DNA from: Escherichia coli
GTDB lineage: Bacteria; Pseudomonadota; Gammaproteobacteria; Enterobacterales; Enterobacteriaceae
Strand: one strand, 5' to 3'
Length of the DNA: 64,000 nt
Assembly (NCBI RefSeq): GCF_044324785.1
Contig: NZ_CP172129.1
In this document: piece after piece, positions 24,262-24,894 of the stretch
Position numbering within the stretch: position 1 is the stretch's first letter
Layout: every line of letters starts with the position of its first letter
The notes under the pieces: generated by a model
What the model was told of the DNA's origin: nothing
The model's input: only the letters and a program-made list of their open reading frames with translations
Databases searched by the model: none
Made by a program: the position numbers and the translations under genes

Positions 24262-24894
24262 ATGGCAGTTCGTGGCATTAACAAGGTCATTCTCGTAGGA
24301 CGCCTGGGAAAAGATCCGGAAGTCCGTTACATCCCCAACGGGGGCGCAGTGGCAAACCTGCAGGTGGCCACATCAGAAAGCTGGCGTGACAAACAGACGG
24401 GGGAGATGCGGGAGCAGACAGAATGGCATCGTGTGGTGCTGTTCGGCAAGCTCGCGGAAGTGGCAGGTGAATATCTGCGCAAGGGCGCGCAGGTCTACAT
24501 CGAAGGTCAGCTTCGCACCCGTAGCTGGGAGGATAACGGTATCACCCGTTACGTCACCGAAATTCTTGTTAAGACCACGGGCACCATGCAGATGCTGGGA
24601 CGTGTCGCAGGTGCTCAGACTCAGCCGGAAGAGGGGCAACAGTTCAGCGGTCAGTCTCAGCCGGAACCACAGGCGGAGGCCGGTACGAAAAAAGGAGGCG
24701 CAAAAACGAAAGGCCGTGGACGTAAGGCCACGCAGCCGGAGTCGCAGCCGCAACCGCCGGAGAGTGACGATTACGGGTTTTCAGATGATACCCGTTCTGA
24801 ACGACTGACTGTGACAACCGCTCCGTCCTGTGCGGGGCATCACCGGAGAGATGAGGATGAGCGAATATTTCAGAATACTTCAGGGGCTGCCTGA
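24262..24894 (+). CDS. ssb: Plasmid single-stranded DNA-binding protein SSB, C-terminus altered by apparent 1-nt deletion
   Basis: [72 protein letters not shown]... OB-fold; ends ...[16 protein letters not shown]... instead of the expected ...SDDIPF stop (gatgatacccgttctga vs expected gatgatatcccgttctga). Confidence 0.8.

Follow-up and report, generated by a model that had tools for sequence, protein, structure and literature searches.

The ssb Gene and Its Surroundings

The window analysed here, a stretch of 64,000 nucleotides from Escherichia coli, carries a plasmid ssb gene on its plus strand at positions 24262-24894, an open reading frame of 210 codons that closes with a TGA stop at 24892-24894 (open reading frame list, translation). 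[quoted passage not shown] It scored 374.4 bits against the NCBIfam model of the plasmid SSB subfamily (NF010292; cut-off 265), with residues 1-178 aligned to profile positions 1-174 of 175, and 177.4 bits against TIGR00621 (cut-off 53.95), values which place it above the curated subfamily threshold among the bacterial homotetrameric SSBs of the plasmid subfamily (NF010292 / TIGR00621 / Pfam PF00436). The features of the locus, with the basis for each in brackets, are:

23900-24215, minus strand: Frpo-type single-strand promoter hairpin on the transferred strand, just 5′ of ssb (folding, homology to F128)
24262-24894, plus strand: variant ssb open reading frame, 210 amino acids and TGA stop (open reading frame and translation; NF010292 profile match)
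24262-24606, plus strand: intact OB-fold ssDNA-binding core, residues 1-115 (phmmer against the PDB)
24607-24789, plus strand: Pro/Gln/Gly-rich disordered linker and start of the acidic tip, residues 116-176, ending ...DDYGFSDD (unchanged and collinear with intact alleles)
24773-24795, no strand assigned: inverted repeat ACGGGT (24773-24778) / ACCCGT (24790-24795) (read from the sequence)
24790-24791, plus strand: 1-nt (T) deletion within the ancestral Ile177 codon, ATC to A-C (alignment with F128, p1_115106 and p504237)
24790-24891, plus strand: new 34-residue tail (former stop region, ssb-DUF905 spacer and 5′ end of DUF905, in a foreign frame)
24798-24800, plus strand: ancestral ssb stop TGA, now out of frame (sequence, alignment)
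24857-25090, plus strand: DUF905 (yubL) gene, ATG at 24857 (open reading frame list; DUF905 annotation in identical plasmids)
25109-27112, plus strand: ParB-like leading-region gene, uninterrupted (ParB/RepB/Spo0J domain)
27164-27601, plus strand: psiB, full length (NF010255, 278.7 bits, profile positions 1-143 of 144)
27598-28317, plus strand: psiA, full length (NF010258, 416.9 bits, profile positions 1-238 of 239)

The OB fold had been described as intact in the original prediction, and full alignment with solved enterobacterial SSB structures bore this out. Residues 1-113 matched the E. coli SSB core structure 1eyg (phmmer, E 1.4e-55) and were aligned with the further core structures 1eqq and 4mz9, with no large gaps, while residues 1-173 were aligned with 7f2n (E 2.4e-61). 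The WHRVVLFGK and SWRDK segments are kept and the Trp, Phe and His motifs of the fold are conserved, the residues for ssDNA binding and for the tetramer interface being those expected of the family. Beyond the core, the low-complexity linker (residues 116-170) is collinear with that of intact plasmid SSBs, and the whole of 24607-24789, including the start of the acidic tip, differs from the intact alleles by point differences only. No second ssb was found in the window by tblastn with the OB fold, which matched 24262-24606 only.

Upstream of the gene, the minus strand of approximately 23900-24215 folds into an imperfect hairpin of about 310 nt with a DNA minimum free energy of -90.8 kcal/mol (z = -7.08; none of 100 shuffled sequences folded as well). 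It is homologous to the region 5′ of ssb in F128 and is apparently intact; in F, ssb, yfjA, yfjB and psiB are expressed early and transiently from Frpo2 once a cell has become a transconjugant (PMC9849209). The gene occupies the position expected in an F-like establishment operon and is transcribed towards oriT; its promoter, start codon and ribosome-binding site are intact, as are 176 of its 179 codons. Downstream of it, the genes for DUF905, the ParB-like protein, PsiB and PsiA are all full length. Given that the hairpin and these downstream genes are intact, the lesion in ssb described below is isolated within an otherwise intact establishment operon. A PADLOC search returned no match to a defence system.

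Three minor observations concern this neighbourhood. At approximately 24232-24236 the window has four G residues where F128 and p1_115106 have five (alignment column 838), which places an open reading frame from an ATG at 24031 in frame with ssb and yields a purely mechanical frame of 287 amino acids; the matching small frame 5′ of ssb in F128 and p504237 is labelled 'frameshifted single-stranded DNA-binding protein' by PGAP. Between the methyltransferase gene and the Frpo hairpin, a 139-amino acid antisense frame (23542-23961, minus strand) runs over a pyrimidine-rich repetitive tract; related records list it as a 'hypothetical protein' (WP_015056142.1), and it seems doubtful that this is a true gene. 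Lastly, in the plasmid of ATCC 11775 (NZ_CP033091.2, positions 54-1271 of the locus L001), the RefSeq psiA is frameshifted and psiB has an internal stop, in contrast to the full-length copies at 27164-28317 of the window, a difference that reflects either further decay of the leading region or errors in the record.

Loss of One Base and Replacement of the C-Terminus

Positions 24784-24802 of the window read GATGATACCCGTTCTGAAC. Alignment of the gene with three intact relatives (F128, p1_115106 and p504237) opened a single gap in the window (column 530): all three intact genes read GATGATATCCCGTTCTGA, where the window reads GATGATA-CCCGTTCTGA. The missing T belongs between A24790 and C24791, and the pattern GATGATATCCCGTTCTGA is absent from the window even when up to two mismatches are allowed. 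The proposal that this plasmid ssb is frameshifted near its 3′ end thus holds, as does the comparison with F ssb on which it was based; the T missing from the window is present in F128.

With the T put back, the gene encodes a 179-residue protein ending ...SDDIPF-stop. As the gene stands, collinearity with intact plasmid SSBs extends over residues 1-176; where Ile-Pro-Phe-stop would follow, translation instead yields 34 new residues (177-210), read through the former stop, the spacer of 56 nt and the 5′-most 38 nt of DUF905. A C-terminal extension of 30 amino acids had been predicted; the extension is there, and its length is corrected to a tail of 34 residues, which makes the protein 31 residues longer overall. 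Intact alleles have 56 nt between the ssb stop and the DUF905 ATG, whereas the ribosome-binding site, start codon and first 38 nt of DUF905 now fall within the extended ssb frame.

The acidic tip, which in the family ends D-D-I-P-F with a free terminal Phe, here reads ...SDD-TRSERL... and the protein ends ...NTSGAA. The claim that the tip has been lost was therefore sound, its terminal IPF having been removed by the 1-nt deletion. The NF010292 profile match ends at residue 178, and nothing in the family profile corresponds to the tail beyond it. The 34-residue tail carries a net charge of 0, and the net charge of the last 25 residues changes from -5 in the repaired protein to -1 in the 210-residue form.

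The string DEDERIF within the new tail resembles DDDIPF and was considered as a recreated tip. It was rejected: it is internal and corresponds to the DUF905 ribosome-binding region read in another frame, and on these sequence grounds the likeness is treated as a coincidence. As a separate observation, the ancestral GATGATATCCCG (window 24784-24795) holds an EcoRV site, GATATC, which the T deletion destroys; the lost base lies away from the blunt cut position, so that a scar of EcoRV cutting and repair is not obvious.

Distribution of the Allele

At least 40 complete plasmids of varied laboratory, host and year share the 751 nt around ssb with 100% identity, with one place of match per record in the carriers listed. 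The sources of these plasmids include humans, poultry, dogs, cattle and lake water, and among them are pS88 (NC_011747.1), the plasmid of ATCC 11775 (the E. coli type strain) and, with the same complete identity, the Salmonella Kentucky ColV plasmids pCS0010A and pSSAP03002A. The 71-mer that has the deletion at its centre gave exact matches in 124 complete E. coli records of RefSeq and in 116 plasmids of PLSDB (100 from E. coli and 16 from Salmonella), 113 of the latter 116 being predicted to be conjugative; these carriers amount to at most about 2% of the F-type ssb-bearing plasmids of PLSDB (116 of at least 5000). At least 1000 contigs encode the exact 210-residue protein, which goes by the name 'MULTISPECIES: single-stranded DNA-binding protein', as against two contigs only for the exact repaired 179-residue sequence.

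That the deletion might be a sequencing or assembly error in the window had been raised earlier as a general possibility, and the chance of this is now negligible: the same sequence was obtained in more than 100 independently sequenced complete plasmids, the protein recurs on at least 1000 contigs, and the site is not a homopolymer run.

The carriers are ColV/aerobactin-type IncF virulence plasmids. In the window, the aerobactin operon (iucA-D, iutA) is located upstream of the leading region, at approximately 2797-12000, and several ColV-type plasmids of 134-152 kb match it there with 100% identity; the window is therefore likewise assigned to a plasmid of this kind.

Annotation of the allele is divided. 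PGAP/RefSeq treats the locus as a pseudogene, 'incomplete; missing C-terminus', while GenBank submitters entered the same locus as a 210-residue SSB overlapping the next gene; relative to the family consensus its frame is disrupted by the 1-nt deletion that underlies the PGAP note. A question attached to the original prediction, whether the extension is simply the normal C-terminus of a described plasmid SSB variant, has an affirmative answer in a trivial sense only: a protein with this tail is recorded very often in databases, but what has been recorded there is the frameshift allele. The allele, present many times in databases and flagged by PGAP, is thus already known as an object; no paper commenting on the ssb frameshift was found in the literature searched.

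The Same Deletion on Other Haplotypes

The same T is missing on other haplotypes, at the loci L006, L007, L008, L009 and L010. Two of these, L007 and L010, are mosaics, and since their sequence downstream of the deletion has window-specific SNPs, the deletion there is explained by recombination. At L008 (1044-1110) and L009 (633-700), both from Salmonella Saintpaul, the deletion lies on a different flanking haplotype, which departs from the window sequence at 23 nt on the 5′ side and at 10 nt on the 3′ side of the deletion; the neighbouring genes are intact. This arrangement points to an independent event or to conversion of a very short patch. L008 and L009 may come from one sample. A fifth locus, L006 (841-910), has the deletion next to a different downstream flank, but its ParB-like gene is split and the assembly is less trustworthy on that account. 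No exact copy of the deletion on either alternative haplotype was found in PLSDB.

Its recurrence on a second haplotype is a hint that the site of the deletion may be a weak hotspot for mutation. The site forms part of the inverted repeat at 24773-24795, and the loss of the T turns a 5-bp stem (ACGGGT / A(T)CCCGT) into a perfect stem of 6 bp, with a DNA folding energy of -3.6 kcal/mol for the ancestral form and -4.9 kcal/mol for the deleted form. Neither hairpin is better than that of shuffled sequence (z = -0.34 and -1.49, respectively), and a quasi-palindrome template switch as the cause of the deletion is offered as a hypothesis only.

Among the top protein matches there were about 30 SSB clusters without the IPF end and 85 with it, in a list biased by a query that itself contained the extension. 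The forms lacking IPF are mostly singletons, and the two larger ones that were traced, P0044 and P0063, are encoded on contigs that also have a fragmented ParB-like gene (L011, 2400-3604; L012, 2375-3584), which suggests that these two and many other 'variant SSB' entries come from error-prone assemblies. With singletons, fragmented contigs and a biased query, the notion that many independent tip-loss alleles attest to selection was rejected.

Predicted Properties of the Extended SSB

In E. coli, the nine-residue acidic tip of SSB docks at least 17 partner proteins (PMC7145534, PMC10018359, PMC7913777), and forms without the tip bind ssDNA but do not recruit SSB-interacting proteins (PMC7145534, PMC10018359). 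Based on this established role of the tip, the 210-residue SSB, if made, should form tetramers and bind ssDNA while having lost partner recruitment (PMC7145534, PMC10018359). Without a terminal Pro-Phe-COOH it would be expected to fail to recruit chi, PriA, RecO, RecQ, RecJ and ExoI. Two further consequences can be envisaged. Ribosomes crossing the DUF905 start site might lower the translation of DUF905, and any C-terminal signal for translocation by the type IV secretion system (T4SS) would be altered by the new tail. Such C-terminal signals exist for some substrates of F-system T4SSs (PMC11288057), and the SSB of pED208 itself passes through the T4SS (PMC8406263); the changed C-terminal charge could matter inasmuch as a signal of this type may aid translocation.

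The closest characterized relative is the SSB of F (SsbF, 179 amino acids; NF010292/PRK13732), the gene for which holds the same position in the leading region with the same hairpin 5′ and the same genes 3′. Over the 529 nt upstream of the deletion the two genes show only scattered point differences, the OB fold and linker being shared. The window allele departs from F in lacking one T in codon 177, in having 34 unrelated residues in place of Ile-Pro-Phe, and in overlapping DUF905 by 38 nt. Among intact alleles, the closest is the ssb of the IncFIA/FIB/FIC plasmid p1_115106 (WP_032332913.1), with approximately five point differences over 640 aligned nt; it has the same spacer and DUF905 as the window, and there the T and the DDIPF end are present.

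The window allele also invites comparison with engineered proteins. Tip-less forms of E. coli SSB (SSB-deltaC8, and ssb113 with P176S) similarly keep the OB fold and lose the docking tip. Unlike these, the window allele is natural, an accessory plasmid copy beside a wild-type host SSB, and it gains a foreign tail rather than being truncated or substituted. In SsbF-sfGFP, SsbF-mCherry and pED208 SSB-Strep, extra residues deprive the protein of a free C-terminal Phe, as they do in the window allele, and fluorescent fusions of the SsbF-sfGFP and SsbF-mCherry type localise to ssDNA foci (PMC9849209, PMC8406263); these tagged proteins keep DDIPF internally, whereas the window allele has in addition lost IPF. 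In function, the SSB of the window would thus resemble the engineered tip-less E. coli SSBs more than it would a normal plasmid SSB.

Evolutionary Interpretation

The allele is real, and it is probably a vertically inherited form of ssb in which a dispensable gene has suffered a tolerated, partial loss of function. Loss of one T from the Ile177 codon carries the frame past the ancestral stop and ends it 38 nt inside DUF905. The lesion would be tolerated because the ssb of F-type plasmids is accessory and the host SSB is present as well, and rather than having been selected for, it probably hitch-hiked with a very successful plasmid lineage. Experiments with related plasmids are consistent with such tolerance. 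Deletion of ssb from F did not significantly change the frequency of conjugation, while the first and second duplications of the plasmid were delayed (PMC9849209), and deletion of ssb from pED208 left transfer unchanged and raised the SOS response of recipients (PMC8406263). Plasmid pCVM29188_146, a sister of the carriers pCS0010A and pSSAP03002A, with tabulated differences that spare ssb (Table 2 of PMC3008734), gave transconjugants in both E. coli and Salmonella (PMC3008734). Transcripts of ssb were measurable from pS88, where the gene was listed simply as ssb (PMC3438092). Two points argue against a purely neutral loss. The allele persists across two genera, in a conjugative lineage and with no further decay of the OB fold, although its copies are almost identical, which would have left little time for decay; and the T is also missing on the L008/L009 haplotype, which is unexpected of a purely random neutral lesion.

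A more complete loss, in which the extended protein is unstable or poorly made and the plasmid is effectively without an SSB, is unlikely. It would agree with the PGAP note of a missing C-terminus, with a 34-residue tail that amounts to random translated spacer, and with the tolerance of full ssb deletions in F and pED208 (PMC9849209, PMC8406263). Against it, nothing has changed in the start codon, ribosome-binding site, promoter hairpin, OB fold or linker, and pS88 yields measurable ssb transcripts (PMC3438092). Moreover, an extended C-terminus alone need not abolish the protein, given that C-terminally tagged plasmid SSBs, namely the sfGFP and mCherry fusions of F SSB and the Strep fusion of pED208 SSB, do accumulate (PMC9849209, PMC8406263).

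We consider it quite unlikely that loss of the tip was itself adaptive, with an Frpo-driven, tip-less SSB coating the T-strand without recruiting RecO(R), RecQ, RecJ or ExoI. Such a protein might reinforce PsiB against RecA loading, the SOS response and degradation, or might avoid titrating the partners of the host SSB; in a related version, a zygotically induced SSB blind to its partners would protect the incoming strand from the host's recombination and nuclease machinery that depends on the SSB tip, or from a host sensor. This proposal draws on the fixation of the allele in a globally successful conjugative lineage, the identical deletion on a second flanking haplotype with intact neighbours (L008/L009), the intact OB fold together with the preserved promoter and operon, and the finding that plasmid SSB and PsiB suppress mating-induced SOS (PMC8406263). 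It is countered by the rarity of the allele in PLSDB noted above, by the great majority of plasmid SSB clusters retaining ...DIPF, and by the failure to find exact copies of the deletion on other haplotypes in PLSDB. The carriers are nearly identical, so that one origin and hitch-hiking would be enough, and a tip-less SSB would also miss chi and PriA, helpers of complementary-strand synthesis. Were the proposal true, the allele would be a natural anti-recombination or anti-SOS establishment factor alongside PsiB, and its recurrence on an unrelated haplotype would signify convergent selection, not a hotspot.

Restoration of the tip by recoding is highly improbable. If ribosomes slipped by -1 once ACC had been decoded, they would continue with CCG TTC TGA and end the protein in ...SDDTPF, and Pro-Phe-stop is indeed present in the -1 frame straight after the deletion. 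The mechanism was nevertheless rejected on sequence grounds: there is no slippery heptamer, GAU ACC CGU would bar re-pairing of the tRNAs after a -1 shift, no stimulatory structure was evident on inspection of the sequence, and for transcriptional slippage a longer run than CCC would be needed.

Recent work still calls the role of plasmid-encoded SSBs unclear (PMC9849209, PMC12365149). The dominant ColV virulence plasmid lineage of extraintestinal and avian pathogenic E. coli (ExPEC/APEC), to which the plasmid that has spread to Salmonella Kentucky also belongs, is able to transfer and to persist with an SSB predicted not to dock partners; it follows that the contribution of this SSB is either independent of the tip or dispensable in nature. 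While the finding is one of ordinary biology, it is useful mainly in that the allele provides a ready, natural control for the function of the SSB tip in plasmid establishment. It also bears on surveys of plasmid gene content: with the same locus entered as a pseudogene in RefSeq and as a 210-residue SSB in GenBank, counts of 'ssb-positive' plasmids depend on the annotation pipeline.
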